A program made the translations under genes and the position numbers. DNA of 63,990 nt, counting the filler, from Ferroacidibacillus organovorans (GTDB lineage: Bacteria; Bacillota; Bacilli; Alicyclobacillales; SLC66), in NCBI RefSeq assembly GCF_001642725.1. It is 5 parts of 5 records of this genome, joined end to end, with 100 filler letters (N's around TTAATTAATTAA, not from the genome) between each part and the next. Parts side by side here need not be neighbours in the genome. Positions count along the whole stretch, not along the records: positions 1 to 15,366 come from NZ_LSUQ01000062.1; 4 more parts are not named here. One strand, given 5' to 3'. Positions 1 to 17,569 of this stretch are shown one piece after another. The notes beneath the pieces are model-generated. The model worked only from the letters and a program-made list of their open reading frames with translations. It searched no databases and was not told the DNA's origin. Every line of letters begins with the position of its first letter. Positions within the stretch are counted from its first letter, which is position 1.

Positions 1-1235
1 AAAATCCCTTCGTCCATTCTTGACGCAACACTGGGAACGCATCCGTAGTGAACTCCTTCGGGGAACCTATCAACCATCGCCCGTACGTCGAGTCGAAATC
101 CCGAAACCAGACGGTGGCGTGCGTTTGTTAGGTATTCCCACTGTGCTAGATCGCCTGATCCAGCAGGCTATTCAGCAAGTTCTCACACCTATCTTTGACC
201 CGGAATTCTCACCGTACAGTTATGGCTTTCGTCCGGGGTACAGCGCCCATGACGCGGTCAAACAAGCGCAGGGCTACATTGCGCAGGGATACCGCTGGGT
301 AGTCGACATGGACTTGGCACAGTTCTTTGACCGCGTGAACCACGACATGCTCATGGCGCGGGTCGCACGGAAGGTCGCGGATAAACACCTGCTCAAACTG
401 ATCCGAAAATATTTACAAGCAGGCGTCATGATTGGCGGAGTGTGTGTAGTATCAGAGGAAGGAACCCCGCAAGGAGGTCCCCTGAGTCCATTACTTTCGA
501 ACATCATGCTGGATGACTTGGACAAGGAGCTAATGCGCCGGGGACATCGATTTGCAAGGTACGCGGACGACAGTAACATTTATGTGCGGAGCCGTCGCGC
601 GGGAGAACGGGTGATGGAAAGTGTTACTGAATTTGTTGAAAAGCGACTAAAGCTCAAGGTGAACAGGGAGAAGAGCGCGGTAGATCGCCCGTGGAAAAGA
701 AAGTTCCTTGGCTTCTCATTCACGTGGCATCGCCAGCCTAAAATCCGGGTATCTCCGAAATCTCTCAAACGTTTCAAAGACAGAGTTCGAGATCTGACGA
801 AACGTAGTCGGGGTCAATCCATGGAGGCACGCGCTGCAAAGCTCAATGCGTATCTACGTGGGTGGAGTGGATATTACCGTCTGGCCGAAACGAGGAGTAT
901 ATTCGCGAATTTGGATGAATGGGTACGCCGGAGACTACGGATGTGCCTGTTGAAGCAATGGAAGAAGCCAAAAACGAAGCGAAGGAAACTCGTCGGACTT
1001 GGCATACCCGAGGATTGGGCCAGAATGATTAGTGGTTCCCGTAAGGGATACTGGCGGTTGGCCTTGACTCCTCAGATGAACAAAGTCCTTGGTCTTGCCT
1101 ACTGGCATGACCAAGGACTTGTGAGCTTGGTTGAACGATATGATGCACTTCGTTCCACAACATGAACCGCCGTATACCGAACGGTACGTACGGTGGTGTG
1201 GGAGGTCGGGAGCTAGCCGCTCCCTCCTACCCGAT
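1..1235 (+). mobile_element. Group II intron, class IIC (5' part outside window)
   Basis: RT/maturase ORF followed by domain V (GAACCGCCGTATACCGAACGGTACGTACGGTGGTGT, CGC triad) and domain VI ending CCTACCCGAT at 1235. Confidence 0.95.
20..1165 (+). CDS. ltrA: Group II intron reverse transcriptase/maturase (N-terminus outside window)
   Basis: IPKPDGGVRLLGIPTVLDR, GTPQGGPLSPLL and YADD motifs, domain X; no endonuclease domain; frame open to window edge. Confidence 0.97.
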   Translation: MTQHWERIRSELLRGTYQPSPVRRVEIPKPDGGVRLLGIPTVLDRLIQQAIQQVLTPIFDPEFSPYSYGFRPGYSAHDAVKQAQGYIAQGYRWVVDMDLAQFFDRVNHDMLMARVARKVADKHLLKLIRKYLQAGVMIGGVCVVSEEGTPQGGPLSPLLSNIMLDDLDKELMRRGHRFARYADDSNIYVRSRRAGERVMESVTEFVEKRLKLKVNREKSAVDRPWKRKFLGFSFTWHRQPKIRVSPKSLKRFKDRVRDLTKRSRGQSMEARAAKLNAYLRGWSGYYRLAETRSIFANLDEWVRRRLRMCLLKQWKKPKTKRRKLVGLGIPEDWARMISGSRKGYWRLALTPQMNKVLGLAYWHDQGLVSLVERYDALRSTT

Positions 1236-2105: not shown

Positions 2106-2160
2106 AAGAAGCTTGAGAAAGCGCTTTCGAATATAGGTTTAGCGATGGGAGGATTAGGGC

Positions 2161-2796
2161 GTGGCAAACGAGGAACCGCAAGAAAAGAAAAAGGTCGAAG
2201 TGGACTGGAGTCGCCGCCAATTTTTGATTGGCACGGGAGCACTCACGGTGGTTGGACTCGGCGCGATGTTTTTGAATGAACCTGTCGCGGCAGCCGTTCG
2301 CTCCGTTTTTGGCCAGCAACCGGAGTCAGGGCCGATCACGGTATTACAGGGCGATTATTTTTACATTCCAAACTACATGACCTGGCGCGTAGGCGATCAG
2401 ATTAGTATGACCATTCATAACACGAGTACGACACACTTCCATGAAATGCAGATTGGACGCGGCTTCAATACGATGCCCACCGCGCTGCAGACCATTCGCA
2501 CGCAGTTTGCGGAAGACTTTTGGAAGGGTGTGCCCGTCACGATTACGGCGGCGCAAGGAATTGATAACTTTGTAACGAATGAGGCGAAAATCTCCTCGGA
2601 CGTACACCCCACGCCTTGGCTATTAACCCAGCCTGGCAATGGTGGCTTTAGCCCAACGATGAAACCGGGTGGACAGATCACACTTAGCTTCACAGTTCCC
2701 AATAAACCTGGTATCTGGCACTACGCGTGTTTTGTCCAAGGGTACATGCACTGGCTTGCAGGAATGCGCGGTACGATTAATATTTTACCGGCCTGA
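2161..2796 (+). CDS. Tat-exported cupredoxin, AcoP/Cup-like
   Basis: SRRQFL twin-arginine signal; His in HEMQIG; C-terminal VPNKPGIWHYACFVQGYMHWLAGMRGTINILPA (Cys-His-Met type-1 Cu site) resembles A. ferrooxidans AcoP as recalled. Confidence 0.85.
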   Translation: MANEEPQEKKKVEVDWSRRQFLIGTGALTVVGLGAMFLNEPVAAAVRSVFGQQPESGPITVLQGDYFYIPNYMTWRVGDQISMTIHNTSTTHFHEMQIGRGFNTMPTALQTIRTQFAEDFWKGVPVTITAAQGIDNFVTNEAKISSDVHPTPWLLTQPGNGGFSPTMKPGGQITLSFTVPNKPGIWHYACFVQGYMHWLAGMRGTINILPA

Positions 2797-2851
2797 TTTT
2801 GTGAATTAGCTTTAATTCTAGCAATCACGGAGTGGAAGGAGGAACACCTGA

Positions 2852-3655
2852 ATGTCAGACGTTGTCCTGTTTGGTATTTTGTGGGTTATTCTCACGATTT
2901 TGGGCGAAATCGGCGTCAGCTTGTGGGGTCATAACATGTACTACTATATGGCTTCCACACAGGCTATCGAGGGCAATCATGCTGCTATCTTTCTAATGAT
3001 TTTCTTGACGCCGATCTTCATGTTTGTTGTTCTCATGCTCTTCTTTGTTCCTTTTCGGTTTCGGGCTAAAGATGGTGACCGCAAAGTTAAAGCGGCGACA
3101 TTCAAGACGAATCGTACCTTTATCTCGATCTGGGTTACCGTATCGGTTTGTGTGAACGTGCTATTTTTTATCCATCCGACCGCATCGGCAGCCGAAATGA
3201 TGTTCCAAGAAGCAAACCCTGCAAACCAGCAAAACACGTTGATCGTCGACGTTGTGGCGCGCCAGTGGCAGTGGTATTTCAGCTACCCGCAGTACGGTGT
3301 CACCAACACGGTGAATGCAAACGGTTTTAACGATCTCTATCTTCCGGTTGGTCGTAAAGTGGAGTTTGTACTTCGCTCCTATGATCCTAACCATACGTAT
3401 GATCCGAACCTTGACGTGGTTCACGATCTGTGGATCCCTGCGTTCGGGATTAAAGAGGACGTCATTCCTGGCGAAACGCGTTTCATGTATGTGACGCCAA
3501 ACGTGATTACTTCTTTTGAAAAGAACCCGATGGTTCGCGTGCAGTGTGCAGAGGTTTGCGGTCCAGGCCATCCCTACATGTGGGCTCCTGTACATGTCGT
3601 CTCCTCATCGAACTTTGCGACGTGGATCGCACAACAGAAAAAACAAAATGGTTAA
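2852..3655 (+). CDS. coxB: Heme-copper oxidase subunit II (CuA)
   Basis: RQWQWYFSYP, DVVHDLWIP and CAEVCGPGHPYM CuA motifs; about 3 N-terminal TM segments; no fused cytochrome c. Confidence 0.95.
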   Translation: MSDVVLFGILWVILTILGEIGVSLWGHNMYYYMASTQAIEGNHAAIFLMIFLTPIFMFVVLMLFFVPFRFRAKDGDRKVKAATFKTNRTFISIWVTVSVCVNVLFFIHPTASAAEMMFQEANPANQQNTLIVDVVARQWQWYFSYPQYGVTNTVNANGFNDLYLPVGRKVEFVLRSYDPNHTYDPNLDVVHDLWIPAFGIKEDVIPGETRFMYVTPNVITSFEKNPMVRVQCAEVCGPGHPYMWAPVHVVSSSNFATWIAQQKKQNG

Positions 3656-3681
3656 GTTGACCTAAGAAGGGGGTTTGAGGA

Positions 3682-5568: not shown

Positions 5569-5581
5569 AGGAGGGGTCATT

Positions 5582-6151
5582 TTGTCAAGCCACGTTAAAT
5601 CCTCACGCACGCTTAACGCGGAGGAGCGTATGGCATTAAACACATCGCGGGGCGGTTTTACGATTCTGATCGCGAGTCAGATCGTGCCATTTGTGATGTT
5701 GGTTAACCTGCGCTACATTCTTTCGGGATCCTATGTATCGTCAGGCCTTGATCAGGCGACAGGCGCTGTGTTTACCATCCTTTTCATCATCAGTGCGATC
5801 ACTGCATATGCGGGCATTCAGGCGACCAATCGCTCTGACAGCAAGGCGTCTGCTCGCATGAGTGTTCTCACGATGGTACTGGGCTGGATCGCCGTCATTA
5901 TGATGAGCTATCAATTCTGGATGCACGCGTTTCAGACAGATGGCCGTTTTGGTGAAGGTTACCTTGTTACGATCGGTGCCTTTGTAATCTACTTTATTGC
6001 GTCGCTCGTAGGACTTCTTTCGGGAAAGATGAGAGCGAGCCGCGTCGGCATTGATGACAGTAACCGCTTCAGCATTGGCGCCAGCTTCAAGTTTTGGATT
6101 TTCTTGCAACTGATGTGGGTCGTACTCTACGTGGTTTACTACTTTATTTAA
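5582..6151 (+). CDS. coxC: Heme-copper oxidase subunit III (short form)
   Basis: 5 TM helices; C-terminal FWIFLQLMWVVLYVVYY like the subunit III end; follows subunit I. Confidence 0.85.
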   Translation: MSSHVKSSRTLNAEERMALNTSRGGFTILIASQIVPFVMLVNLRYILSGSYVSSGLDQATGAVFTILFIISAITAYAGIQATNRSDSKASARMSVLTMVLGWIAVIMMSYQFWMHAFQTDGRFGEGYLVTIGAFVIYFIASLVGLLSGKMRASRVGIDDSNRFSIGASFKFWIFLQLMWVVLYVVYYFI

Positions 6152-6163
6152 GGAGGGATTGGC

Positions 6164-6364
6164 GTGGGCGGATTTTTTCCTTCTTTTCCTTTCTATGTCC
6201 CTGACAGTCCGGGAACACCCCTTTGGTGGGATATCTCGTTCTGGCTGTTCCAGTTAGTCGTCATGTCGGCTCTTTTGCTCACGCTTCGCCGTTGGGCGAT
6301 TCGTGCAGATCTCGATCGCGAAGAGGCTTACCAAGAGAGTCTTCGCACCCCTGAGAAATCCTGA
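6164..6364 (+). CDS. Small single-TM protein, putative oxidase subunit IV (CoxD-like)
   Basis: 66 aa, strong RBS AAGGAGG, one TM helix, last gene before the terminator. Confidence 0.6.
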   Translation: MGGFFPSFPFYVPDSPGTPLWWDISFWLFQLVVMSALLLTLRRWAIRADLDREEAYQESLRTPEKS

Positions 6365-6375
6365 GTAGTGAAAAT

Positions 6376-6406
6376 GCCCTCTTGCGTCTCGCAGGAGGGC
6401 TCTTTT
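6376..6406 (+). terminator. Intrinsic terminator of cupredoxin-cox operon
   Basis: GCCCTCTTGCG-tct-CGCAGGAGGGC hairpin followed by TCTTTT. Confidence 0.75.
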
Positions 6407-6469
6407 CCTCGTAACTGTCTTCGGATCCTCTTGCATTGACGCAATAAACGAAGAAAGGAGCGCTGCCGA

Positions 6470-7651
6470 ATGGACATGCACGATTTAAACAATACGCAAA
6501 TTTTATCCGTCTATTATTCAAGTTTGATGATTGTGGTATGGATCCTGTTTTTTACGATCTTTACCGTTTCATTCATGACATTCATTTTTAAGTGGGTTGG
6601 GCAACAAGCAGATGAAATGGATCTAAAGCAAAACCCCACAGTTTTAAAAGGGGGCAGACGTGTTCCGCTGCGGCTGATTCCTGGCGGTGGAAATAAGGTA
6701 TTCCAAGCGCGTCACCGTCTGCAAGTGGGTTGGTACATTCTCTGGTATGGACTCGGCGCGATCTGGTTGCTCGACGGTCTGCTTCAAGCGCAGCCCGATA
6801 TGGCGCTCCCGCTTTTTGTGAAACTCGTTTTTCAACCACTCGCGAATGCGCAACCGAGTTGGCTCAAGGCTGTCATGGATCTGGGGATTTATCTCTGGAA
6901 TCAAAATACCGTCACAAGCAATATTGGTGCCGTTCTCATTCAGGTTGGAATTGGAGTTGCTATGCTTACGGGACGCAGTCGTCTCTGGGGCAAGATCGCT
7001 GTTTACGTGTCTCTTCTCTGGTCACTTTCGATCTGGGTCTTCGGTGAAGGAATGGGGAACCTCTTTTCGCACCCCAGTTATTTTAATGGTACACCAGGCG
7101 CTGCACTCATCTATTCCGTGCTATCCTTGTTTCTTATTCTTCCGAAGAAATACTGGTTGGAGGGTCACATTGCACGCTGGTCGTTGCGGGGTTTAAGTAT
7201 CATGTGGATCGTGCTTGCGCTTGCTGAGCTTCTCCCGAAAAATGGCTACTATAGTCCGAACGGACTTTTTTCAATCATCGCCACGCTCTCGAATATGCCG
7301 CAACCGCAATTTATTTCTTCATCCCTGGAATCCATTGCGTCTGCTATTTTTAGGGCGCCAATCGTTTGGAATGTCGGTTTCTCGATGATTATGTTAATGC
7401 TTGGCGTCATGGGATTGTTCGTGCGATCACGCAAAGTGTTTTTAACGCTCACGATGGCATGGTTGGCATTCTCTTGGTGGGCTGGCCAAGACTTTGGCTT
7501 CTTTGGCGGCATGGGTACTGATTTGAATATGTCCCCGCTGCTTGCGCTGATGTATGTTGCGTGTTGGTGGTATGGAGAGGCCAGCGGTGATGGACATTTG
7601 CTCGTACGCTCTGTGAATAATAATGAATCTCTGCGCGCGAACCGCGGATGA
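6470..7651 (+). CDS. Polytopic membrane protein with two DoxX/DoxD-like repeats
   Basis: Repeated units GLGAIWLLDGLLQAQP...QP..W...IWVFGEGMG and GLSIMWIVLALAELLP...QP..F...WWAGQDFG. Confidence 0.55.
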   Translation: MDMHDLNNTQILSVYYSSLMIVVWILFFTIFTVSFMTFIFKWVGQQADEMDLKQNPTVLKGGRRVPLRLIPGGGNKVFQARHRLQVGWYILWYGLGAIWLLDGLLQAQPDMALPLFVKLVFQPLANAQPSWLKAVMDLGIYLWNQNTVTSNIGAVLIQVGIGVAMLTGRSRLWGKIAVYVSLLWSLSIWVFGEGMGNLFSHPSYFNGTPGAALIYSVLSLFLILPKKYWLEGHIARWSLRGLSIMWIVLALAELLPKNGYYSPNGLFSIIATLSNMPQPQFISSSLESIASAIFRAPIVWNVGFSMIMLMLGVMGLFVRSRKVFLTLTMAWLAFSWWAGQDFGFFGGMGTDLNMSPLLALMYVACWWYGEASGDGHLLVRSVNNNESLRANRG

Positions 7652-7727
7652 CATTGCGAAGCGCAACGTTACCCAGTATGATCAGGTAGAGTTGTGTGGA
7701 CAAGTGAGCAGAGTGAGGGTGACAAAG

Positions 7728-8195
7728 TTGGCAGCGTATTGGGCATTATTCAATGAAATGCTGATGATTATCAGTGCAGTGATTGCTTTGTTTGGATGGC
7801 GTCAAATTCGTAGGAAGAATCGCGAGGTTCATCGCAAATTGATGATGACATCCTCTCTTTTCGGGGCAGGCTTTTTTATCAGTTACGCAGTGGCGACATT
7901 GGCGATTGGGGATACATCCTTCGGCGGTCCACAATCACTTTCTGTCCCGTACCAGATTTTTCTGCAGATTCACGTCATGCTGGCGACGATTGCTGCTGTC
8001 ATGGGTGTGGTTACGATTGTTCTCGCTTTGCGCAGTCGTTTTTCCACGCATCGACGCATTGGTCCGTGGACGGTTATTTTCTGGTTGGTGTCTGCCGCCA
8101 CCGGTTTAGTTGTTTATCTGATGCTGTTTGTGATCTTTCCTCCTGGGCCTACTATTAAAAACTTACTGCATGTGCTTGTCTCGTCAAAATCGTAG
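7728..8195 (+). CDS. DUF420 family (CtaM/YozB-like) oxidase assembly protein
   Basis: GWRQIRRKNREVHRKLM, HVMLA, HRRIGPWT motifs; TTG start after GAGG RBS. Confidence 0.8.
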   Translation: MAAYWALFNEMLMIISAVIALFGWRQIRRKNREVHRKLMMTSSLFGAGFFISYAVATLAIGDTSFGGPQSLSVPYQIFLQIHVMLATIAAVMGVVTIVLALRSRFSTHRRIGPWTVIFWLVSAATGLVVYLMLFVIFPPGPTIKNLLHVLVSSKS

Positions 8196-8206
8196 GGGGC
8201 TTTCTT

Positions 8207-8554
8207 GTGAAATGGGCAACATTTGCGTTTGGTATCGTTAGTGTGCTGCTTACAGTCATGACGGGTCTCATTGTTCAGGGTTCGTTTCTCGTTCATGTCG
8301 CATCGTCGGGAACGACACATGAGAAGTTGGCGGTGATCGTTTATGGTGCGGCGGCCATGGCGCTACTCGGTTCGATTATGGCGCTTTTTCGGCCGCGCTT
8401 TGCCGCGTGGTGTTTTGTGATCGCATCGGTTGTCGGTGTATTTGGCGCGTTTGACCTGTGGATGTTTCCGGGTTCGGTGCTGTTTGTCTCGATGATCATG
8501 GCGTTTGTGCAACGCACGGAGCAGACGACGGCGGGTGCAGACAAAAAGGCTTAG
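8207..8554 (+). CDS. Hypothetical membrane protein
   Basis: 115 aa, about 4 hydrophobic segments, co-directional and closely spaced. Confidence 0.6.
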   Translation: MKWATFAFGIVSVLLTVMTGLIVQGSFLVHVASSGTTHEKLAVIVYGAAAMALLGSIMALFRPRFAAWCFVIASVVGVFGAFDLWMFPGSVLFVSMIMAFVQRTEQTTAGADKKA

Positions 8555-8573
8555 TGAGTGCCGAGTGACGTGT

Positions 8574-8603
8574 ACGGGAGCGAACCTTCGCTTCCGTTTT
8601 TTT
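8574..8603 (+). terminator. Intrinsic terminator
   Basis: ACGGGAGCGAA-cc-TTCGCTTCCGT hairpin plus T run. Confidence 0.8.
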
Positions 8604-8701
8604 GTGTGTGAATCTTAATCTACGGCCTAGTTGAACGTCCATATTTATGCGAAGGAGTCATGATATGATCATAAGGTAGTGGTGGTACTACTGCGAGAGG
8701 T

Positions 8702-9298
8702 GTGATTTTAGTGTTATCGATGAATGATATCCAGGCGCCGCGCTTGGCTGCGACGGTCATTCTGGTCGATGCGTGGAACGCACAGCCGTTTCGTGTCCTT
8801 TTGATCAAACGTCCGAGTCAGCTTCGCGTTTTACCAGGATTTTGGGTGTTTCCTGGGGGGCGAGTCGAGATGGAAGATGGGCTTGGATCGGTCGATGAAA
8901 TGGATGCACTCTTGCATGCGGCCATTCGCGAAACAAGGGAAGAAGTGGGGATTTTACTCGAGAAACAAGCGCTCCTATGGTTCGGGAGGCGAGTTACTCC
9001 AAACGTTATGAAACATCGTTTTGACACGCATTTTTTTATTGCGCGTATCCCCCACGGAACCGAGTTTTGCTTGTCTGTCGAAGAAGCTGAAGAAGCGCAG
9101 TGGTGTACACCGGATGAAGCGTTTCAAAACGCGGAGAATGGGACGTGGCTCGTCGCGCCTCCGACGCGTGACGCATTGCGCACACTATCCTCTTTGAGTG
9201 CCGACGCCCTCTTTAACGGTGGCGTGATGCAGGCACAAGTCGAGAATCGCGATGAGATTGATCAGTTTGTGAAATCCATTCAGATGCCGCTGGCTTGA
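8702..9298 (+). CDS. NUDIX hydrolase
   Basis: WVFPGGRVE...AAIRETREEVG Nudix box; RFDTHFF. Confidence 0.9.
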   Translation: MILVLSMNDIQAPRLAATVILVDAWNAQPFRVLLIKRPSQLRVLPGFWVFPGGRVEMEDGLGSVDEMDALLHAAIRETREEVGILLEKQALLWFGRRVTPNVMKHRFDTHFFIARIPHGTEFCLSVEEAEEAQWCTPDEAFQNAENGTWLVAPPTRDALRTLSSLSADALFNGGVMQAQVENRDEIDQFVKSIQMPLA

Positions 9299-10143
9299 TA
9301 CATGAGCACTTTTTTCGCGCGATCATAGTGACACGCGATCAGATTTTTCTCTGAGAGGTAGCTCAGATGGGCGCGCACGGTGGCGAGTGCCGCCCACATG
9401 TGGTTCCCTGCGATCGCTGAGCCGTAAAGGGTGGCAGCCAGTTCATGCGCGCTTTGCGGTTTACGGATGAGTTGATTGAGAATTTGTTCACTGCGCGCTT
9501 CGCGGCGCTTTAACATCGTCACAAAAAACGATGGTGTCGCCTCAATCGACTCTCCGTGACCGGGGAGTATGGTTTTTGCAGATAAGGCATGCAGTCGAGT
9601 CAATGATTCATAAAAATGGGCGAGATGGCCGTCGGGTGGCCCAATCCAGACAGTTCCGGCAGACGTGGCGTTGTCTCCGGCGATAAGCGTCTGTGTTGTT
9701 GCCTCATACCAGGCGAGGTGACCGTGCGTGTGCCCCGGCGTCTCTATGGTTTCTACACGGTATGCGTTGAGGTGAATCATGTCACCTGCGCAAACGTCAC
9801 GCCATGAAATCGCCGCAAGACGTTTGCGCAGAGACACTCCTTTGTCCTCGATCGACTGACGCTCGAGTGGGTGAATGTACACGTTGCAGCAGTAAGTCTC
9901 AGCGAGTGTGAGCAGACCGCCTGCGTGGTCTTTGTGGGCATGTGTCACGAGAATGCCTTGGATGGTCACTTTCTTTGCGCGGATCCACGCGATGAGCGTG
10001 TGCAGGCTTGCGGGTTCGTCATACCCCGTATCAAAGAGCAGCGCACTTCGTCCATCTGTCATGAGATGAACATTGACGGTTGATTCGAGCGAACTGGCGC
10101 CGTTTAGTTCGAGAGATTGGAACGAGAGTGCCAGTGTGTTCAC
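9280..10143 (-). CDS. MBL-fold metallo-hydrolase (LACTB2-like)
   Basis: THAHKDH, TPGHT, GD and PGHG motifs; C-terminal winged-helix-like tail. Confidence 0.9.
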   Translation of the reverse strand: MNTLALSFQSLELNGASSLESTVNVHLMTDGRSALLFDTGYDEPASLHTLIAWIRAKKVTIQGILVTHAHKDHAGGLLTLAETYCCNVYIHPLERQSIEDKGVSLRKRLAAISWRDVCAGDMIHLNAYRVETIETPGHTHGHLAWYEATTQTLIAGDNATSAGTVWIGPPDGHLAHFYESLTRLHALSAKTILPGHGESIEATPSFFVTMLKRREARSEQILNQLIRKPQSAHELAATLYGSAIAGNHMWAALATVRAHLSYLSEKNLIACHYDRAKKVLMYQASGI

Positions 10144-10215
10144 CCACTTTCTTTACAAACTTTTTTTGTGCAAGAATGTACCCCTGTGTCATGCAAATCA
10201 AGGGAGGGTCTACTC

Positions 10216-10797
10216 ATGAAACTATACACGAAAACGGGAGATAAGGGCGAAACAAGCCTGATCTACGGCCGCAGAATTGCTAAAGATGATCTGCGTGTAG
10301 AAACCTACGGTACACTCGATGAAGCGAACAGTGTGTTGGGACTCGCCGCACAGGCATTGCGTGAGGATGAATCGTGTGCCGATCTTTTGCGCATTGTCGC
10401 GCGAATTCAGCGCGATCTGTTCGATGTCGGGCGCGATCTTGCGACGCCAGAAGACAAACAGGGAGAGCCGTTTGTCACAGCAGACCACGTGTCGACCCTG
10501 GAGGGGGTGATCGATCGCCTGGACGCGCAAGTTCCGCCTCTGACACAGTTTATTTTGCCGGGCGGTGCGCTTGCCGCGGCGCACTTACACCATGCGCGTA
10601 CGATTGTACGGCGTGCGGAGCGACTGGTCGTTACATTATCTCGTGAACAAAAGGTGTCTTTGAACATTGGAATCTATCTCAATCGGCTGTCTGATTTGCT
10701 GTTTATCACGGCGCGCACAGTCAACCATCGCCTTGGTGTCACAGAGCCACACGTGGATTTCAACGCCGCCGCAGAGTCGCTTGAAGAGGGGGTGTGA
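10216..10797 (+). CDS. pduO: ATP:cob(I)alamin adenosyltransferase (PduO type)
   Basis: MKLYTKTGDKGETSL, YGTLDEANS, FILPGG, RRAER, YLNRLSD motifs. Confidence 0.93.
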   Translation: MKLYTKTGDKGETSLIYGRRIAKDDLRVETYGTLDEANSVLGLAAQALREDESCADLLRIVARIQRDLFDVGRDLATPEDKQGEPFVTADHVSTLEGVIDRLDAQVPPLTQFILPGGALAAAHLHHARTIVRRAERLVVTLSREQKVSLNIGIYLNRLSDLLFITARTVNHRLGVTEPHVDFNAAAESLEEGV

Positions 10798-11597
10798 CTG
10801 TGTTTGATTGGCAGGACATTCGGGGTGTTCTTCTTGATTTGGATGGAACACTTTTTCGTGGGGATATCGTATTGCCCGGCGCGATCGCGCTTATTGAGCA
10901 ATTGCGGCACGCTCAGATCCCCTTTCTCTATTGGACAAATAATTCGACGCGCACGCCAGAGCAGGTTGTCACTCATTTACAAGGGTTAGGCTTTAACGCC
11001 TCGGAAAACGAGGTTTACACCAGTTCACTGGCCGTTGCAGACGCACTTGCAGGCGTTCTCCCGCATGCTTCTGCGGTGTATGCGCTTGGTGAAGAAGGTC
11101 TTGTTGACGCGCTCCGTCGACGCAGCTTTCGCGTGTTGACCGAAGGCGGACGCGATGAGCCTGTGGCTGCAGTTGCGGTGGGGCTTGACCGAGAGGTCAC
11201 CTATGCGCGCTTTGCTCAAGCGATGCAGCACCTTATGAGTCCGGATGTACTCTTTTACGCGACGAACCAGGATCGCGCGTTACCGCACGGGGATCACTTC
11301 CTGCCTGGAGCAGGCGCGGGGATCTCCTTTTTAGAGACGTGCACAGCTCGACGAGCGGTGGTGGTGGGCAAACCGCAAGCTACCTTTGTGCTTGCTGCGT
11401 GTGACAGGCTCGCTGTAGCACCTAGACACACGCTGATTGTCGGGGACAATGCAGAGACGGATGTGGCTGCCGCGAAACAGGCTGGAGCTATGGCTGTGTG
11501 GGTGACGACGGGTGTGTCACACGTGCGTGCAGAGCGGGGAACGCGAACCATTTCAGCGCTGACGGAGCTTCTTCCGGTCTTTGGCGCGCGAAAATAA
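10794..11597 (+). CDS. HAD-IIA hydrolase (NagD/YutF-like)
   Basis: DLDGTL, TNNS, GKP, GDNAETD motifs. Confidence 0.9.
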
Positions 11598-11604
11598 AAC
11601 TCTA

Positions 11605-11668
11605 TTGACGATACTATATGTTGTGCATATAATGGTCATGGACATCCTTATTACACTACATATGGTAT
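11605..11668 (+). promoter_or_regulatory. SigA promoter with tandem NrdR boxes
   Basis: TTGACG-17-TATAAT (11605-11633); NrdR-like boxes ATACTATATGTTGTGC (11611) and ACACTACATATGGTAT (11653), 42 bp apart. Confidence 0.85.
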
Positions 11669-11679
11669 GGGGTGATCTC

Positions 11680-12189
11680 GTGAAGTGCCCGTATTGTCAG
11701 GCGCATGACTCGCGCGTTGTCGATTCTCGCGTGAGTGATGAACAGTCGTGGGTGCGCAGGCGCCGGGAGTGTGTCTCTTGCCAAAAACGCTTCACGACCT
11801 ATGAGCGGGTGGAGTTGACGCCGCTGATTGTCGTGAAGAAAGATCGCGTGCGCGAAGAGTTTAACCGGGATAAGGTGCGCCGCGGCGTGGTTCGAGCGTG
11901 CGAGAAGAGACCGATCACGCTTGATCAAATGGAGCAACTCGTCGATGACGTGGAGCGTGTGATCCGCGCAGAGTTTGAGCGTGAGGTTCCTTCGTGCGAA
12001 GTGGGGGAGCGCGTCATGAATGCGCTCAAGGCGCTTGATGGCGTGGCGTATGTTCGCTTCGCAAGTGTGTATCGGGAGTTTCGCGACGTGGAGTCGTTTG
12101 CAAAAGAGGTTTTGGCATTACTTCATACTTCCGGCGAGGGAAAGCATGCGGTGCCGGGAGAACAGGAATCGGAGGATGAACATTTGTGA
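11680..12189 (+). CDS. nrdR: Transcriptional repressor NrdR
   Basis: KCPYC...VVDSR...RRRREC..C.KRFTTYE; ATP-cone; [13 protein letters not shown]. Confidence 0.97.
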
Positions 12190-15100
12190 GTCAGACCATG
12201 TTGCCGCTTGGCGAAGAAGATGGTTTGTCCCTGACGGGGGAACGCATCGTCGCTGATCGCTATTTATTGAAAGACGCTAAAAAAGAGACGCTGAGCGTGG
12301 GTAGCCTTGTCGTCGCAGTACTCGATCGCAAGCGCTCTTATCACGAATTGGCGCGCGTTGTCGCCATGGACGAGCGCGCGAAGACCGTAACGGTCGAATT
12401 GCGCGACGGCTATCGTGAAGAACTCGCGTTTGATCATGTTGACGTCTTGAAAGAGACCGCTCCGCGCGAGATGTGGCGCAGAATTGCGCGCGGCGTCGCC
12501 TCTTCGACGGCAGATCCGAGTGCATATGAAGAAAAATTTTATGAGTTGCAGAGTCACTGGCGCTACGTTCCCGGGGGGCGCATCAACGCGTCGATGGGAA
12601 CGGGGATCAAAACGACGAGTTATAACTGTTTCGTAATTCCTAATGTAGGTTATAATCTGCGCGACTATGCGCGTTCATTTGGGCAAACGCTTGAGATTCA
12701 GGCGCGCTCTGGGGGCGTTGGCATGAACCTCAGTCAGGTGCCGCCCGCAGGGACGCTCATCCCAACAGAAGCTCGCTCGCGCAAGCGTGATTTGATCCTC
12801 GCGATCGATGTTTGGCACGAAGATCTCATGGAATTTTTGACGCAGTTTTATCCGAACAGCACCAAGGCGGTGCGTCTTTCCAAGTCTTTTTTGCGCGCCG
12901 TCGAGGAAAACATGAACTGGACCTACACGTTTCCAGACACGAGTTGCGAGTCGTATGACAGCGCGTGGGACGGGGATATCGATGCGTGGATTGCGGCGGG
13001 CTACCCTGTGCGCTCTGGCGAGACGGTCTCTGCGCAAGCGGTGTATGACGCGATTGTCGAGAGTGGGGCGCTCATCCTTCAAGATTTGCTCGGCACGGTG
13101 ATTACACCGGGAGACAGCCGGGGAACCATCGCCGAGCGACTCGGAGACATGTGGGAAGCGATGAGCCGTCAGAAGCGCGTGACCATGCTGCTCTCGACGC
13201 TTCGTCCGCGGTACAGCTATGTGCGCGGTGTCAATGGCCGCAGTTCAGGAGCCTACTCGTGGGGACTGCTCTATGACAAAGCGAATGAGGTCTTTGGACA
13301 GGGATTCGGTCCGGTTGGCGTCGGGGAGATCATGAGTGTCGGCTGCCAGTTGACGCTGCAGGGTGGCTCGCGCCGCGGTGCGCTGATGCTTATTTTGAAT
13401 GACCGTCACGCAGATGTCTTGAAGTTCATTCGCTGCAAGCAGGTTGACGGGGTCATCACAGGTGCAAACATTTCCGTCGGAATTTCTGAAGCGTTTATGC
13501 AGGCCAAGGCGACGGGCGCGCTGTGGGATCTCGGCTATCCTGACATGGAAGATGCGCCGCGGTTTGACGGGGATTTTGACGCGTGGGAAGCGCGCCAGGA
13601 ACTGCTTGTCACGTCAGAGCGAATTGAAGCGGCGAAACTGTGGGATGAGTTGACGACGTCTGCGTGGAAATCTGCGGAACCTGGCGTGGTTTTTCTTGGA
13701 CGGTACAATCGCATGTCAAACTCGCACTACTTTAATCCAATCATTGCGACAAACCCGTGCGGAGAGCAAGGTCTTCCCGCGTTTGGGATATGTAATCTCG
13801 GCGCGGTGGTGCTCAGTAAATTTGCCGTGGGCTTTGAAGATGAAGCAAAACGCGTCACTTTTCGCGATTCTGCAAAAGAGGCGTATTTGCGCGGATGGCT
13901 CACGCGCTATTTTGACGAGACGCGCGCAGACTTTTTCCTTCATCACATTAAATGGGAAGAGCTTGAGGAGATTACGCGCACAGGGCTTAGGTTTCAGGAT
14001 GCGGTCATTGATGCGACGTATTATCCGTTTGAAGACAACAGGGTCAATCAATTGAGCGAGCGACGCGTTGGGCTCGGAATCATGGGGCTGCACGATCTTC
14101 TCCTTTATTGCGGAGTTCGGTATGGTTCACAGGAATCCGTTCACCTCATCGACGTGCTGATGGGCATGATGGCGGAGTGGTGTTATCTTGAATCTGTGGA
14201 GTTGGCGAAAGAGAACGGGCCTTTCCCGAAGTTTGACGCGGACGCATTTTTGCAGTCGGGTTATATGAAAACGATGGCCGAAGAACGTCCCCACGTGACG
14301 GCTGCGATTCGCCAGTACGGCGTCCGCAATGTCACGACGATGACCATTGCGCCGACGGGTACGACCGGGACGATGGTCGGATGTTCGACCGGTTGTGAGC
14401 CTTACTACGCGTGGTCCTATTTCCGCAATTCGCGCCTTGGGATGTTTGAAGAGCGGGCGACGATCGTGGAGGAGTATCTCACGGCTCACGCGCCGGTGGA
14501 GGGGTTACCCGACTATTTCGTGACATCCATGGATCTCTCGCCAGAAGAGCACGTGCGCGTACAAGCGGCGCTTCAGAAGTGGATTGACAGCAGCATTTCA
14601 AAAACTTGCAATGCGCCGAATGACTATACGATTGAAGATACGAAAAAACTCTACGATTTGGCGTATGAGCTGGGATGCAAGGGCGTCACGATTTATCGGG
14701 ATGGGTCGCGCTCGGAACAAGTGCTTTCTTTGAGCGATCCAACGGAGGAGGTAGGGGAGCATGCGACGGTCCAAGTGGCGGCAGGCCATTTGGACAACGT
14801 TGACGCTGTGGTAGACAGCGGAGATGCTGCGCGTCTGGTCGGTTACCAGAACCGCAAGCGACCTGACGTACTCTACGGCGCGACGTACAAGAAAGAGACG
14901 CCGCTTGGAACTGCGTTTATCACGATCAACGACGATCAGACGACATCTTTCGCGCGTGAAATCTTTGTCAACATCGGCAAAGCAGGCTCCGATGTGTACG
15001 CAGCGAATGAAGCGCTCGGACGGGCGATTACCCTTTATTTGATGGATTCACTAAATCCAGAGAAAGAGGCAGTGCTCGTCAAGCACTTTAGTGGAATTGG

Positions 15101-15366
15101 CGGTCAGACTTCGGTTGGATTTGGTGAACGACGCATCACGAGTGTTCCTGATGCGATTGCGAAATCGCTGATTGAACACGCGGAGACGTTTCCGCTGCGC
15201 CGTATCTCGCAGGCGACAAGTCGTGATGACGCGACAGAACAGGGTGCTTCGCACAACCACGCGGCAGCGCCGCTTTCGTCGCTGCGGGCGGCCGAGATCG
15301 CGCGGGATTGGTGCCCAGAGTGTCACCAACACTCGCTGATTCGTCAGGGTGGCTGTTCGGAGTGCG
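12186..15366 (+). CDS. nrdJ: Class II (B12-dependent) ribonucleotide reductase with internal duplication; C-terminus cut by gap
   Basis: [54 protein letters not shown]-like domain and CxxC zinc ribbon. Confidence 0.95.
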
Positions 15367-15466
15367 NNNNNNNNNNNNNNNNNNNNNNNNNNNNNNNNNN
15401 NNNNNNNNNNTTAATTAATTAANNNNNNNNNNNNNNNNNNNNNNNNNNNNNNNNNNNNNNNNNNNN
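15367..15466. other. Artificial contig linker
   Basis: 100-bp N run with central TTAATTAATTAA (stops in all frames). Confidence 0.97.
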
Positions 15467-15511: not shown

Positions 15512-17569
15512 ATGAGTACGACAATGAAGAGTAAAACAATGAGTCGCGAAATGGTGACGCACGCGCTCTTTGAATCGGTTTTAAAGCTTGACCCGCGCGT
15601 CATGATCAAAAATCCGGTCATGTTTGTCGTTGAGATCGGTTTTTTGATCACGCTCATTTTGACGGTCGACCCAAACGCGTTTGGCGGGCATTACCCGGCA
15701 GGCCAGCGCGCCTATAACCTGATCGTCACGATCATTCTGCTCATCACAGTCATCTTCGGAAATTTTGCGGAGGCGATCGCGGAGGGGCGCGGCAAGGCTC
15801 AGGCTGAGTCGCTGCGGCGCACGAAGTCTGATCTGATGGCGTTCAAGTGGGTGAATGGCGACGAGTATGAGAACGTCCCCGCCTCGACGCTGCGCAAAGG
15901 GGATCGCATCCGAGTTCGCGCAGGCGAGATGATCCCGGCGGACGGTGAGGTGCTCGAAGGGCTTGGCAGTGTGGACGAATCGGCGATCACGGGAGAGTCG
16001 GCGCCGGTGATTCGCGGATCGGGCGGAGACTTCAACTCGGTGACGGGGGGCACGAAGCTGCTCTCAGACACGCTGATGATTCGCGTGACGGTGGATCCTG
16101 GTGAATCGTTTCTCGATCAGATGATCGGGTTGGTGGAAGGCGCGAGCCGCCAGAAAACGCCGAATGAACTGGCGCTCTCTGTGCTGTTGGCGGGACTCAC
16201 GCTGATTTTTATCATCGTGGTGGTGACGATCGAGCCGATGGCGCGCTACGCGGGTCGCTCGGTCGATGTGGCGACGCTGATCGCGCTTCTCGTGTGTCTC
16301 ATCCCGACCACGATCGGGGCGCTCCTCTCTGCCATCGGCATTGCCGGGATGGATCGAGTGATCCGTTTTAACGTGATCGCGAAATCGGGAAAAGCGGTTG
16401 AGGCGGCGGGTGATGTGAATACGCTGATCCTCGACAAGACAGGGACGATCACGATTGGCAACCGGCTCGCGAGCGCGTTTGTTCCAGTGAGCGGCGGGAC
16501 AGAGGCGGAACTGATGGAGATCGCGGTGCTTTCTTCACTGTTTGACGAGACACCAGAAGGACGGTCGGTGGTCACGCTTGCCCACGAGCGGAACCTGACG
16601 ATGGATCGCGAGCGCTATGCGGACGCTGAGAATGTGGAGTTTAGCGCGGATACGCGTATGAGCGGAATCACGCTCAGCGACGGTACGCGCATTCGCAAAG
16701 GCGCCGTGGACGCGATGAAAAAGTATGTGCTCGAACAAGGTGGCGTGATTCCTGAGGACCTTGACGCGCGGACGGAGGAGATCGCCAAAGAGGGTGGGAC
16801 GCCGCTTGCGGTGTTGCGTGGCAATGTGATCTACGGCCTCATTTATTTGAAGGACATCGTCAAACCGGGAATGCGCGAACGTTTTATGGAATTGCGCAGG
16901 ATGGGCATCAAGACGGTGATGTGCACGGGGGACAATCCGCTGACGGCGGCGACGATCGCCAAAGAGGCGGGTGTTGACGAGTTTATCGCAGAGGCGAAGC
17001 CGGAAGACAAGATGCGACTGATTCGCCGGGAACAGGAGCAGGGCAAGCTTGTCGCGATGTCAGGCGACGGCACGAATGACGCGCCGGCGCTCGCGCAGGC
17101 GGACGTGGGACTGGCCATGAACACGGGGACGTCCGCCGCCAAAGAGGCGGGGAACATGGTCGATCTTGACTCCGATCCGACGAAGCTGATCGAAGTGGTG
17201 TCCATCGGAAAACAGCTTCTGATCACACGCGGCGCGATCACGACGTTTTCGATCGCCAACGACGTGGCAAAATACTTTGCGATTATCCCGGCGATGTTCG
17301 TGTACGTGGTGCCATCGCTTCAGGCGCTCAACATTATGCACTTGACGACGCCGCACAGCGCCATTCTCTCAGCGCTGATCTTTAATGCGCTGATCATTCC
17401 GTTTCTCATTCCGCTCGCGATGCGCGGCGTCAAATACAAGCCGATGAACGCGACGCAGATGCTTATGCGCAACCTGTTTGTCTATGGACTCGGCGGCGTG
17501 ATCGTACCATTTCTTGGCATCAAGGTGATCGATCTCATCATTACCGCGCTTGGCGGGGCAAACATTTAA
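15512..17569 (+). CDS. kdpB: K+-transporting ATPase B subunit
   Basis: [28 protein letters not shown]. Confidence 0.98.

Follow-up and report, generated by a model that had tools for sequence, protein, structure and literature searches.

The four-helix bundle of ribonucleotide reductases (RNRs), loops 1 and 2, and the insertion that monomeric enzymes carry in loop 1 have been described previously (PMC9669993). The ribose and phosphate of the effector are contacted by Asp232 and loop 1 residues from one chain only (PMC4728125), and the effector is located in one monomer with the substrate in the opposite one (bioRxiv 10.64898/2025.12.21.695763). In the monomeric enzyme of L. leichmannii (NrdJm or RTPR; PDB 1L1L; model TIGR02505), two helices of the inserted piece and two others mimic this interface (PMC3267527). 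Lundin et al. (PMC4390871) counted the dimer-mimicking insertion among the most spectacular inventions in RNR evolution. The sections cited here from the literature on RNR evolution and NrdJm do not state its source. Similarly, the cited parts of Burnim et al. (2022, PMC9669993; bioRxiv 10.1101/2022.04.23.489257) do not state a duplication origin for the insertion; their criterion for the monomeric clade is an insertion of 29-82 residues. Alicyclobacillus, Tumebacillus, and Kyrpidia have no mentions in one supplementary file of that study.

The NrdJ of Ferroacidibacillus organovorans (GCF_001642725.1) has an insertion at the same site as NrdJm, between betaB and alphaB (loop 1). In its second half, the elements are ordered as in NrdJm, and alphaB and loop 2 of the barrel itself come next. 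However, the extra sequence of ~174 aa is unlike the insertion of NrdJm and lies outside the range of Burnim et al. From betaB to loop 2 there are 210 aa; RTPRs have 60-74 aa and canonical enzymes 36 aa in this interval. Furthermore, a copy of betaC...alphaX is still recognisable, which is not the case in NrdJm. The source of the insertion is legible in this enzyme as its own half-barrel, which was duplicated and appears to have been split between the real barrel and a putative pseudo-partner.

The window, namely, the whole stretch of 63,990 nucleotides that was analysed, contains NZ_LSUQ01000062.1 at positions 1-15,366. Coordinates are given as window positions, and all of the features described are on the + strand. 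The nrdJ gene (12186..15365) encodes a class II RNR that is predicted to depend on adenosylcobalamin. Its GTG start overlaps by 4 bases with the stop codon of nrdR (11680..12189; Pfam Zn_ribbon_NrdR 8.4e-19, ATP-cone 3.4e-22; ORF list), the repressor of RNR genes. A gene for a PduO-type cobalamin adenosyltransferase (PF01923, 1.3e-59) is located two genes upstream of nrdJ, which we note as context only. The readable product is 1060 aa; the last 8 codons are missing and the contig ends at 15366. A public cluster representative identical to this protein (P0002) is 1068 aa. NrdJ scored 503.9 bits against TIGR02504 (cut-off 399.95), which places it among class II RNRs, and 335.5 bits against PF02867 (7.2e-100, cut-off 23.9). 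It was the only PF02867 gene found in the genome (96.8% complete), in which NrdD was also looked for and not found.

The catalytic motifs are present. The finger-loop motif NPCGE (13752..13766), described for class II RNR (PMC9669993), contains the thiyl-radical cysteine Cys525 and is followed by Cys536. N523, C525, E527, C148, and C536 are invariant in 37/37 insert-bearing sequences, such that the finger loop and the redox cysteine pair of betaA and betaF are present throughout. The P-x-G-R motif, a mark of triphosphate reducers (PMC8365446), occurs as PGGR at aa 129-132. The C-terminal region (14883..15365) comprises a TSCPD (IscU-like) domain (PF12637, 40.1 bits, 4.6e-10) and the start of a cysteine-rich zinc-finger tail, domains that have been described previously (PMC9669993, PMC5704485). 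The tail CPEC...GGCSEC is interrupted by the contig end; the family consensus finishes ...CPxCHQH...GGCxECEACGYSKC. The gene product is probably a working class II (B12-dependent) RNR with a predicted specificity for nucleoside triphosphates. This NrdJ subgroup is currently named only generically as 'ribonucleoside-diphosphate reductase', whereas the motif predicts triphosphate substrates.

The first-pass annotation of this locus had read the enzyme as a dimeric-type NrdJ, which its nearest relatives support. The nearest relatives are insert-less NrdJs of ~825 aa (P0113-P0121; source-named Anaerolineae, Sphaerochaeta, and Spirochaetales), which are 46-48% identical over the whole length; the insert-less subgroup also includes the Bacilli loci L019 and L020. 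These proteins share with F. organovorans NrdJ the N-terminal domain with a small beta-barrel, PAGR/PGGR, NPCGE, the TSCPD domain, and the zinc-finger tail. The Tudor/SH3-like small beta-barrel (aa 35-92; 12288..12461) was recognised by VIA-align to Tudor domains (Z 7.0-7.8, model residues about 30-92); it is outside the duplication described below, and its sequence is also found in the insert-less relative P0116. The full-length model aligned to the T. maritima NrdJ (PDB 1XJE) over 544 residues with Z 38.4. In contrast, the insert-less NrdJs and 1XJE have one copy of the half-barrel, with Asp-Ser, GGVG, loop 1, and loop 2 in one unit. The TSCPD domain and C-terminal cysteine-rich zinc finger are as in dimeric-type NrdJs with a cysteine-rich domain (CRD); however, unlike in those enzymes, the F. 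organovorans barrel lacks its own loop 1 and the alphaA Asp for the intersubunit site. The core sequence is far closer to these dimeric-type NrdJs than to NrdJm, which also differs in that F. organovorans NrdJ has the IscU-like and cysteine-rich C-terminal domains (CxxC...GGCxEC tail). NrdJ scored only 36.3 bits against TIGR02505 (cut-off 340), and five other insert-bearing relatives scored 27-50 bits, also below this cut-off.

NrdJ holds a tandem internal duplication that extends from betaA to the helix before betaE. Unit 1 comprises aa 147-300 and unit 2 aa 301-497. In a self-BLASTP of aa 140-310 versus aa 300-520, aa 180-294 paired with aa 377-492 at 22% identity (39.7 bits; E 5e-9, which refers to the pairwise search space). 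An hhalign comparison of family profiles, for which the 37 insert-bearing relatives of alignment A1 were used, matched aa 153-296 to aa 307-495 over 141 columns (probability 98.65%, E 5e-16). The motif pairs that the first-pass annotation had named as evidence of an internal duplication all fall within one significant alignment. The Pfam barrel model PF02867 also matched the insert itself (12789-13064, E 7.2e-4). When the insert alone (aa 182-340) was used in phmmer against 1.84 billion representatives, 422 proteins were obtained at E<=1e-3 and 130 at E<=1e-10. Among the best 150 of the 422, the insert was mostly or wholly covered in seven; in the rest, the match was limited to insert aa 13-113 and fell on betaC...alphaX of the target protein, at 27-46% identity. 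Four targets that were checked scored as NrdJ, and one more is source-named ribonucleotide reductase alpha chain. In most genomes of the order, the insert query gave a second match ~606 nt downstream in the same reading frame. Hence, BLASTP, hhalign, PF02867, and phmmer all bear out the description of the insert as a degenerate repeat of the neighbouring barrel segment.

The limits of the insert depend on the reference. In HMMER against T. maritima NrdJ, the gap corresponds to aa 193-369 (nt 12762-13292), close to the ~180 aa at about 12760-13305 given in the first-pass annotation. Relative to the closest NrdJs that lack the insert, aa 182-336 are extra, as are ~20 aa (364-383) inside helix alphaB. 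This extra sequence corresponds to the middle of the duplication and is a half-barrel in circularly permuted order. The second part of the insert, betaA2-alphaA2-betaB2, maps ~65 aa upstream of the match of the first part in other NrdJ-like proteins, in 22/22 targets that passed both thresholds (147 scanned). An intein was ruled out; no intein/Hint family matched NrdJ, and the insert is homologous to the barrel. Real inteins do occur elsewhere in some NrdJ relatives. P0251, a seventh, distant 'insert-bearing' match, was rejected as an intermediate: it is an internally deleted form of 511 aa with neither loop 1 nor the finger loop.

The N-terminal part of unit 1 (12624..12728) belongs to the catalytic barrel and consists of betaA1 (NCFVIP, Cys148), alphaA1, and betaB1 (GGVGMN). 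The effector-binding Asp-Ser of alphaA1 is gone, with positions 156/157 being P/T-like rather than D/S. Cys148 and G176-G179 are invariant in 37/37 insert-bearing sequences, in unit 1 only. The following linker (aa 182-202; 12729..12791) fuses a remnant of the unit 1 loop 1 (LSQVPPAG...) to a degenerate loop 2 (RSRKRD). It is coil by DSSP and the least conserved segment, with 53% and 41% identity to close and distant relatives, respectively. Unit 1 has no alphaB; hhalign placed a 43-residue gap opposite loop 1 and alphaB of unit 2. The next segment, r1 (aa 203-298; 12792..13079), is a copy of betaC-alphaC-betaD-alphaD-hairpin-alphaX, the secondary structure of which mirrors aa 400-497. It would form the first part of the pseudo-partner domain. 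The putative second part (13089..13190) consists of betaA2 (TVITP), alphaA2 (PGDSR..., Asp310), and betaB2, in which Cys and GGVG are lost and Asp310 is kept. D310 and R312 are invariant in 37/37 sequences, whereas Ser311 of the 'DS' pair varies (S 16, Q 14, R 5, and N 2 of 37).

Next, at 13191..13298, are the sole intact loop 1 (aa 336-355) and the helix alphaB2a (aa 356-371). This segment aligns to loop 1 of the insert-less relatives, and the helix, which is present in the model, is read here as the alphaB of the pseudo-partner. The barrel's own alphaB (alphaB2b, aa 376-389) and loop 2 (QGGSRRGA, aa 392-399) are located at 13311..13382, and HMMER aligned aa 370-399 to alphaB and loop 2 of T. 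maritima NrdJ. Identity to close and distant relatives was 95% and 71% for loop 1 and 99% and 71% for alphaB2b with loop 2, the highest values anywhere in NrdJ. The last segment, r2 (aa 400-497; 13383..13676), is betaC2...alphaX2 of the catalytic barrel, as identified by HMMER, alignment, hhalign, and structure superposition; its conservation (64%/42%) is comparable to that of r1 (54%/40%). Asp310, Arg312, Arg340, and QGGSRRGA are found in 36-37/37 insert-bearing sequences, in unit 2 only. Therefore, the two copies decayed complementarily: the catalytic Cys and the GGVG strand are kept in copy 1, and the effector Asp, loop 1, and loop 2 in copy 2. An intact effector-binding element (PGDSR...LSTLRP...GRSSG), reported in the first-pass annotation, is indeed present and is the best conserved part of NrdJ. 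No intact loop 1 occurs outside the insert, nor does an Asp at the N-terminus of alphaA.

AlphaFold modelled full-length NrdJ with a pLDDT of 85, mostly >90 over the insert, and a sub-model of aa 141-500 with a pLDDT of 91.3 and a pTM of 0.90. T. maritima 1xje (133..294) aligned to residues 7..357 of the sub-model over only 147 residues (rmsd 2.0), which suggests that the barrel is built from both ends and the middle is an excursion. Residues 193-374 alone matched single-domain alpha/beta proteins (Z 5-7). The L. leichmannii chain 1l1l (97..377) aligned to the sub-model over 222 residues (Z 10.4, rmsd 3.3), whereas the eight dimeric-type RNR chains ranked above it aligned over 130-167 residues (Z 12-15). 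In Foldseek, 1l1l had a TMq of 0.44 and an rmsd of 6.5; every other RNR chain listed was at 0.19-0.28 and 15-20, respectively. Among the chains listed, the monomeric L. leichmannii reductase was the only solved chain to superpose on both units of the predicted structure, and gave the best simultaneous superposition. The confident models and this superposition support, at the level of a predicted model, the proposal in the first-pass annotation of a pseudo-partner with one allosteric site. We infer the four-helix packing within it from aligned lengths and ranges rather than from inspected coordinates; how the helices pack in detail, how the effector binds, and the oligomeric state are likewise inferred. 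The lower Z-score of 1l1l than of the dimeric-type chains, although more residues align, counts against a pseudo-partner, and AlphaFold may be leaning on learned 1L1L-like solutions.

The insert may instead be an additional domain at the periphery that serves another purpose, for example in contacting the C-terminal domain or a partner protein or in stabilising the enzyme against heat and low pH, with an ordinary alpha2 dimer still handling specificity regulation. In a wide VIA search with the full-length model, 561 residues aligned to 1l1l and 544 to 1xje; this is no clear surplus for 1l1l, which is consistent with a peripheral domain, and the comparison leaves the location of the insert undecided. 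1l1l was absent among the matches listed for the full-length model by Foldseek and by VIA-align on the top chains of Foldseek. Moreover, the tail of the CRD-bearing NrdJd of S. nassauensis takes part in oligomerisation (PMC5704485), and the IscU-like domain and cysteine-rich tail kept in F. organovorans NrdJ suggest that this enzyme may still oligomerise. However, the barrel has neither its own loop 1 nor the effector Asp, and a canonical dimer could, therefore, form sites only with the inserted copy. The pattern of kept and lost elements fits one intramolecular site, and the superposition of 1l1l alone on both units, among the chains listed, and the pTM of the sub-model also argue against a peripheral domain. 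We consider a peripheral domain to be improbable.

The duplicate, rearranged part of the barrel most likely takes the place of the partner subunit on which regulation of such enzymes normally depends. The tandem duplication of the half-barrel, its permuted order, and the complementary decay of the copies are seen in the sequence; we regard it as probable that the resulting pseudo-partner gives one intramolecular specificity site. The duplicated stretch was the first half-barrel segment, betaA-alphaA-betaB-loop 1-alphaB-loop 2-betaC...alphaX. The chain would open the real barrel with betaA1 (redox Cys148), alphaA1, and betaB1 (GGVG) and exit it where loop 1 would be. It would then form a separate alpha/beta domain (~180 residues, aa 193-374) from betaC1...alphaX1 and betaA2-alphaA2-betaB2-loop 1-alphaB2a, the circularly permuted copy of the half-barrel, and, after a turn of four residues, re-enter the barrel at its own alphaB2b, followed by loop 2 and betaC2. 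Helices alphaA2 and alphaB2a are predicted to pack against alphaA1 and alphaB2b, like the helices of the partner subunit in dimeric RNRs. At the one specificity site, the pseudo-partner would hold the dNTP effector through loop 1 and through Asp310, which lies at the alphaA2 N-terminus. Loop 2 of the catalytic barrel would read the effector and shape the substrate site. The symmetry-related second site would have been erased, as the barrel has lost its loop 1 and Asp and the pseudo-partner its loop 2. Specificity regulation may then proceed without a second subunit, as in L. leichmannii NrdJm. This would illustrate one way of building a 'monomer that mimics a dimer' and provides a testable model in which dimer-dependent allostery turned intramolecular.

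The first-pass annotation also proposed an independent route to a monomeric RNR. This is not established: the insertion of NrdJm has a matching layout and likewise includes a betaA-alphaA-betaB-loop 1-alphaB copy. We consider the chances to be even that the insert and the dimer-mimicking insertion of NrdJm came from one duplication event. The Alicyclobacillales enzyme would then be a slowly evolving long form in which the whole duplicated half-barrel is still visible, and NrdJm would have diverged fast, with a shortening of the insert and loss of the C-terminal domains. The order of elements is identical in both: barrel betaA-alphaA-betaB, excursion, betaA'-Asp-alphaA'-betaB'-loop 1-alphaB', linker, and barrel alphaB-loop 2. 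A plain tandem duplication alone would not yield this order, which also requires the loss of loop 1 and alphaB from copy 1 and a second helix beside alphaB. The C-terminal 66-75 residues of the NrdJm insertion matched canonical betaA...alphaB (hhalign 95-96%, E 5e-9 to 2e-8) and unit 2 of the insert-bearing family at 74%; however, its N-terminal 44 residues showed no likeness to r1. NrdJm and the insert-bearing enzymes both have the triphosphate-type P-x-G-R motif. Loderer et al. (2017, PMC5704485) state, in the section cited, that NrdJm 'never' has a cysteine-rich domain, whereas Burnim et al. (PMC9669993) place two minor subclades with long C-termini that have a zinc finger inside the monomeric clade. 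The RTPR model TIGR02505 does not favour a common origin, with the 27-50 bits of insert-bearing sequences being no better than the 32-65 bits of insert-less ones. Only 2 residues are exclusively shared, a count equal to that for L019/L020 and, thus, uninformative.

Alternatively, a dimeric-type Bacillota NrdJ may have duplicated its own half-barrel in an independent, convergent route, long after NrdJm arose; we view this as possible, but doubt it somewhat more than we accept it. The whole-length identity to the ~825-aa insert-less NrdJs is consistent with this route, as are the 19.7 bits (E 1.3e-3) of NrdJ against the 1L1L sequence versus 304 bits against 1xje. The CRD and IscU-like domains are present in F. 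organovorans NrdJ and are not described for NrdJm in the cited part of PMC5704485. The same solution could have been reached twice under structural constraint, as the N-domain has to remain connected with betaA, and loop 2 with betaC. However, a multi-step architecture would need to arise twice. In a segment tree (106 columns, weak support), r1 and r2 each formed a clade and were not sisters, and the duplication does not, therefore, look recent.

The phylogenies point in both directions. The careful ML tree (36 rows x 423 columns, without the insert columns) set NrdJm beside the insert-bearing clade, although the support for this sister grouping was weak (31/52). The two were grouped in 308/1000 bootstrap trees and NrdJm with class I in only 1, and the careful tree and bootstrap spread lean to NrdJm near the insert-bearing clade. 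A basal NrdJm is also compatible with the data (delta lnL 5.63, p-AU 0.0975). In contrast, the quick 68-row tree had NrdJm near the base and the insert-bearing clade nested within the insert-less NrdJs, by L019/L020 at 97. The careful tree uses 36 of these 68 rows, leaving out 6 ALI, 3 ALId, 4 NEAR, 17 REP, and 2 RTPR. NrdJm sampling was thin: the 68-row tree contained 6 sequences, each of them from Bacilli, and the careful tree 4, and the NrdJm stem is longer than 4 changes/site. A genome-contig scan for diverse NrdJm gave 80 loci, almost all from Lactobacillaceae or Sporolactobacillus and close to L003, which are not in the trees. These trees cannot separate a common from an independent origin of the two insertions.

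We tentatively speculate, at slightly less than an even chance, that all monomeric class II reductases go back to one event, the long form of which survives in the Alicyclobacillales NrdJ. If so, the NrdJm insertion arose by a tandem duplication of its own first half-barrel followed by complementary decay, the way in which an allosteric homodimer became an allosteric monomer is documented, and the ancestral C-terminal domains are still kept in Alicyclobacillales NrdJ alongside the complete permuted half-barrel. A thermo-acidophile enzyme family that is widespread in its order is available for testing the model. Besides the conservation of loop 1, loop 2, and r1, two observations point to selection on the insert. 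The NCF-to-NPC spacing is 375-376 aa in nearly all full-length relatives. The insert was found in 58/61 genomes sampled from the order, including 47/47 good-quality ones, and in 23/24 genera.

The nrdJ gene (12186–15365, + strand) is one ORF of 1060 readable residues at the end of its contig (15366), after which a run of N with the ttaattaattaa linker fills window positions 15367–15466. P0002, a public cluster representative identical to it, is 1068 residues long, so just the final 8 codons are cut off. The piece after the linker begins within sequence upstream of a kdpB-like P-type ATPase ORF (15512–17569). NrdJ scored 503.9 bits against TIGR02504 (cut-off, 399.95) and matched the PF02867 barrel (7.2e-100), the PF00317 N-domain, and, near its C terminus, PF12637 (TSCPD). 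By these family matches, it is a class II adenosylcobalamin-dependent ribonucleotide reductase (RNR). In this genome (96.8% complete), nrdJ was the sole PF02867 gene, and NrdD was searched for and not found. Therefore, this NrdJ, with its insert (aa ~182–336), must be the working reductase. A PduO-type ATP:cob(I)alamin adenosyltransferase gene (10216–10794, +; PF01923, 1.3e-59) lies two genes upstream of nrdJ and may be linked to cofactor supply for the B12-dependent enzyme. It is followed by a HAD hydrolase gene (10794–11594, +) and nrdR (11680–12189, +), the stop codon of which overlaps the nrdJ start. Two AT-rich near-palindromes (ACTATATGTTGTG ... ACACTACATATGGT) at 11600–11675, immediately upstream of nrdR, presumably resemble NrdR boxes; if these boxes are real, the nrdR-nrdJ pair would be autoregulated.

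The internal duplication proposed in the first-pass annotation was real, and we regard it as certain. When aa 140–310 were compared with aa 300–520 by BLASTP, aa 180–294 aligned with aa 377–492 (22% identity, 39.7 bits; E 5e-9, referring to the pairwise search space), and every motif pair listed in that annotation fell inside this alignment. A comparison of profiles from 37 insert-bearing sequences by hhalign gave 98.65% probability (E 5e-16, 141 columns, aa 153–296 vs 307–495), and the Pfam barrel model matched the insert alone at 12789–13064 (E 7.2e-4). A phmmer search of 1.84 billion representatives with the insert only (aa 182–340) yielded 422 proteins at E≤1e-3, of which 130 reached E≤1e-10. 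Among the best 150, 7 spanned most or all of the insert; the rest aligned only with insert residues ~13–113, through their own betaC...alphaX part (27–46% identity). The 4 partial-match targets checked all scored as NrdJ, and one further target has the source name RNR alpha chain. In a local re-run (147 scanned), the last part of the insert (query 124–159) matched ~65 residues upstream of the match to its first part in 22/22 targets passing both thresholds. Since the end of the insert matches upstream of its start, the insert is a circularly permuted copy, as the middle of a tandem duplication looks.

The nearest insert-less relatives (representatives P0113–P0121; ~825 aa, 46–48% identical overall) have a single unit in the order NC(Y/F)V, alphaA-start Asp-Ser, GGVG (betaB), loop 1 (SSLRP...GRSSG), alphaB, loop 2 (QGGSRRGA), and betaC onward. 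In contrast, these marks are divided over two units in the window NrdJ. Unit 1 (aa 147–300) keeps NCFVIP (Cys148) and GGVGMN; it has lost Asp-Ser and alphaB, its loop 1 has shrunk to LSQVPPAG..., and its loop 2 is degenerate (RSRKRD). Unit 2 (aa 301–497) keeps PGDSR (Asp310), a full loop 1, and an intact loop 2, in agreement with the intact effector-binding element noted in the first-pass annotation. It has lost the Cys (TVITP) and GGVG, and has two helices (aa 356–371 and 376–389) where relatives have one, with ~20 extra residues. In the AlphaFold model, units 1 and 2 mirror each other in secondary structure, element by element.

Cys148, G176–G179, Asp310, Arg312, Arg340, N523, C525, E527, and C536 were invariant in 37/37 sequences, as was loop 2 (Q392–A399) except for R397 (36/37). 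Conservation over the whole protein peaked in loop 1 (95% identity in 29 close and 71% in 7 distant relatives) and in alphaB2b, the second of the two unit 2 helices, with loop 2 (99 and 71%). The conservation of the betaC...alphaX copy in the insert (aa 203–298; 54%/40%) was similar to that of its barrel counterpart (aa 400–497; 64%/42%). The NCF-to-NPC spacing was 375–376 residues in nearly all full-length relatives.

The insert was present in 58/61 genomes sampled from the order, covering 23/24 genera, and in all 47 with completeness of ≥90% and contamination of ≤5%; the three genomes without a match are assemblies of 65–88% completeness. Approximately 7 clusters carry it at 50% clustering of the 1.84 billion (best 150 of 422 matches). 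By this distribution, the insert form is old in the order and rare elsewhere. Homologues carry source names such as Alicyclobacillus, Tumebacillus, Effusibacillus, Kyrpidia, Sulfoacidibacillus, Fodinisporobacter, and Collibacillus, and a homologue named Anoxybacteroides tepidamans is ~50% identical. The insert-bearing representatives P0005, P0026, P0030, P0040, P0051, P0061, P0086, P0091, and P0100 (1306–1483 aa) also match intein and LAGLIDADG families; where a source is named, it is a Kyrpidia or an Alicyclobacillus MAG. An intact NPCGE motif was not found in these relatives, which suggests that the intein lies at or near the finger loop. The metagenomic P0251 (511 aa), a relative with an internal deletion, has the N-domain, unit 1, and the alphaA2 start, and then skips to the late barrel (GIRNVT...); it has no loop 1 or loop 2 and no finger-loop cysteine, and keeps the zinc-finger tail. 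This protein could reflect a pseudogene, an artefact of assembly, or a paralogue without catalytic function. In one of the order's genomes, an additional open frame of 750 aa (G217:C7:70991-71203) matched only insert residues 40–110 (38% identity); this genome probably has a second NrdJ-like gene, without the insert, as well as the insert-bearing one.

The full AlphaFold model had a mean pLDDT of 85.2, mostly >90 in the insert. When aa 141–500 were modelled alone, pLDDT was 91.3 and pTM 0.90, so units 1 and 2 have a defined mutual position. In a structure search without Foldseek, the dimeric-type T. maritima NrdJ (1xje, residues 133..294) aligned with sub-model residues 7..357 over just 147 residues (rmsd 2.0). 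This fit to both ends indicates that the catalytic barrel consists of betaA1-alphaA1-betaB1 and then alphaB2b onward, with the ~190 residues between as an excursion. Eight dimeric-type RNR chains, with 130–167 residues aligned, ranked above the L. leichmannii monomer (1l1l), which aligned over 222 residues (Z 10.4, rmsd 3.3, chain 97..377). By Foldseek, 1l1l (TMq 0.44, rmsd 6.5, 334 columns) was the only coherent RNR fit among the chains listed, all others giving TMq 0.19–0.28 and rmsd 15–20. Residues 193–374 alone matched single-domain alpha/beta proteins (Z 5–7), which fits a compact inserted domain. Four residues join the first unit 2 helix, alphaB2a, to alphaB2b, the connection expected of an antiparallel alphaB'/alphaB pair across a pseudo-twofold axis.

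The four-helix bundle of dimeric class I and II RNRs is described as built from the alphaA and alphaB helices of both chains; loop 1 caps each end, where the specificity effector binds, and loop 2 links this site to the active site (PMC9669993). Only one chain reportedly contributes the contacts to the effector ribose and phosphate (E. coli Asp232 at the alphaA start and loop 1 residues; PMC4728125), and effector and substrate occupy opposite monomers in a class Ib structure (bioRxiv 10.64898/2025.12.21.695763). In L. leichmannii NrdJm, two helices of an inserted piece, with two others, are described as mimicking the interface (PMC3267527). In the window NrdJ, the kept parts would form one site steering the sole real active site: the pseudo-partner would supply Asp310 and loop 1, and the barrel would supply loop 2. 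The lost parts, namely, the Asp and loop 1 of the barrel and loop 2 of the pseudo-partner, would belong to the symmetry-related site. This arrangement is that described for L. leichmannii NrdJm (PMC3267527), and we consider such a one-site mechanism likely. The first-pass annotation had proposed a pseudo-partner with one allosteric site, which is well supported by the predicted models and the complementary decay pattern. The four-helix packing in the window NrdJ is inferred from the aligned lengths and fit values and from chain logic. A PGGR motif (aa 129–132) predicts triphosphate substrates (PMC8365446). The window NrdJ also keeps the IscU-like and cysteine-rich domains, which are described as taking part in oligomerisation in another NrdJ (PMC5704485), so the enzyme may still form oligomers.

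Genes of the NrdJm (RTPR) type were taken from 13/201 Bacilli genomes; at E≤1e-30, none was found in 14 sampled genomes of the window's order or in the window's own genome. RTPR has the same layout as the window NrdJ: NC...GVG (betaA-alphaA-betaB), an excursion, second-copy elements, a linker, and the alphaB-loop 2 of the barrel. The second-copy elements are (I/V)xxxD(S/T)xEGW (alphaA')-betaB'-S(V/I)RP...GG(T/K)ASG (loop 1)-alphaB'. The C-terminal 66–75 residues of its insertion matched the canonical betaA...alphaB segment (hhalign 95–96%, E 5e-9 to 2e-8), as did its barrel's own betaA-alphaA-betaB (70%, E 4e-5), so NrdJm too has a second copy of this segment; the first 44 residues of the insertion had no match in profile comparisons. 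The analysis did not establish the independent route suggested in the first-pass annotation.

Plain tandem duplication alone does not give this order; in addition, copy 1 must lose loop 1 and alphaB, and copy 2 must acquire another helix next to alphaB. These shared steps speak for one origin of the two insertions and against convergence. On the other hand, TIGR02505 scores (27–50 bits for 6 insert-bearing vs 32–65 bits for 7 insert-less proteins), the only 2 residues exclusive to RTPR and the insert-bearing clade, and the 19.7 bits of 1l1l in a PDB profile search show no special affinity with RTPR. Trees were built from loop 2 to the barrel end without the insert, with class I as the outgroup. 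The quick 68-row tree placed all 17 insert-bearing sequences in one clade (support 100) nested among insert-less NrdJs, adjoining two insert-less Bacilli loci (97), and set RTPR apart near the base, with a branch length of 4.3 changes per site. However, RTPR adjoined the insert-bearing clade in the careful 36-row tree, with support of just 31/52; 308 of 1000 bootstrap trees united them and 1 united RTPR with class I. An AU test did not reject a basal RTPR (delta lnL 5.63, p 0.0975). The N-domain must stay joined to betaA and loop 2 to betaC, which may channel evolution to the same end. We give a common origin about even odds, and convergence slightly lower ones.

The NrdJm insertion was described by Lundin et al. 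(2015, 2010), Hofer et al. (2012), Loderer et al. (2017, 2019), Schell et al. (2021), and Burnim et al. (2022; two papers and a preprint). The accessible text of these sources contained no statement on its origin, and there "duplication" referred only to ATP-cones, IscU-like domains, barrel halves, or whole genes. A literature search pairing Alicyclobacillus with "class II ribonucleotide reductase" found no paper. Burnim et al. recognised monomeric class II enzymes by a 29–82-residue loop 1 insertion plus AlphaFold, and described two minor subclades with long zinc-finger C-termini within the monomeric clade (PMC9669993), which, from the text accessible, may or may not be the insert-bearing family. 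Loderer et al. state that the cysteine-rich domain never occurs in NrdJm (PMC5704485). The insert-bearing family combines a predicted monomer-type specificity site with dimeric-type C-terminal domains, and its insert is much longer than that of NrdJm and still legible. The family is of value mainly because it makes the origin of the dimer mimic readable and testable.

A second family-specific addition of ~40 residues (aa ~551–588, window ~13836–13950; helices aa 562–573 and 578–587) sits past the strand that follows the finger loop. T. maritima NrdJ is without it (query 550 = chain 348, query 589 = chain 350), and aa 500 to 850 comprise ~350 residues in insert-bearing rows vs ~310 in the nearest insert-less relatives. 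The N-terminal domain contains a small five-stranded beta-barrel (aa 35–92, window 12288–12461) similar to Tudor/SH3-like domains (VIA-align Z 7.0–7.8), the sequence of which is also present in the insert-less P0116.
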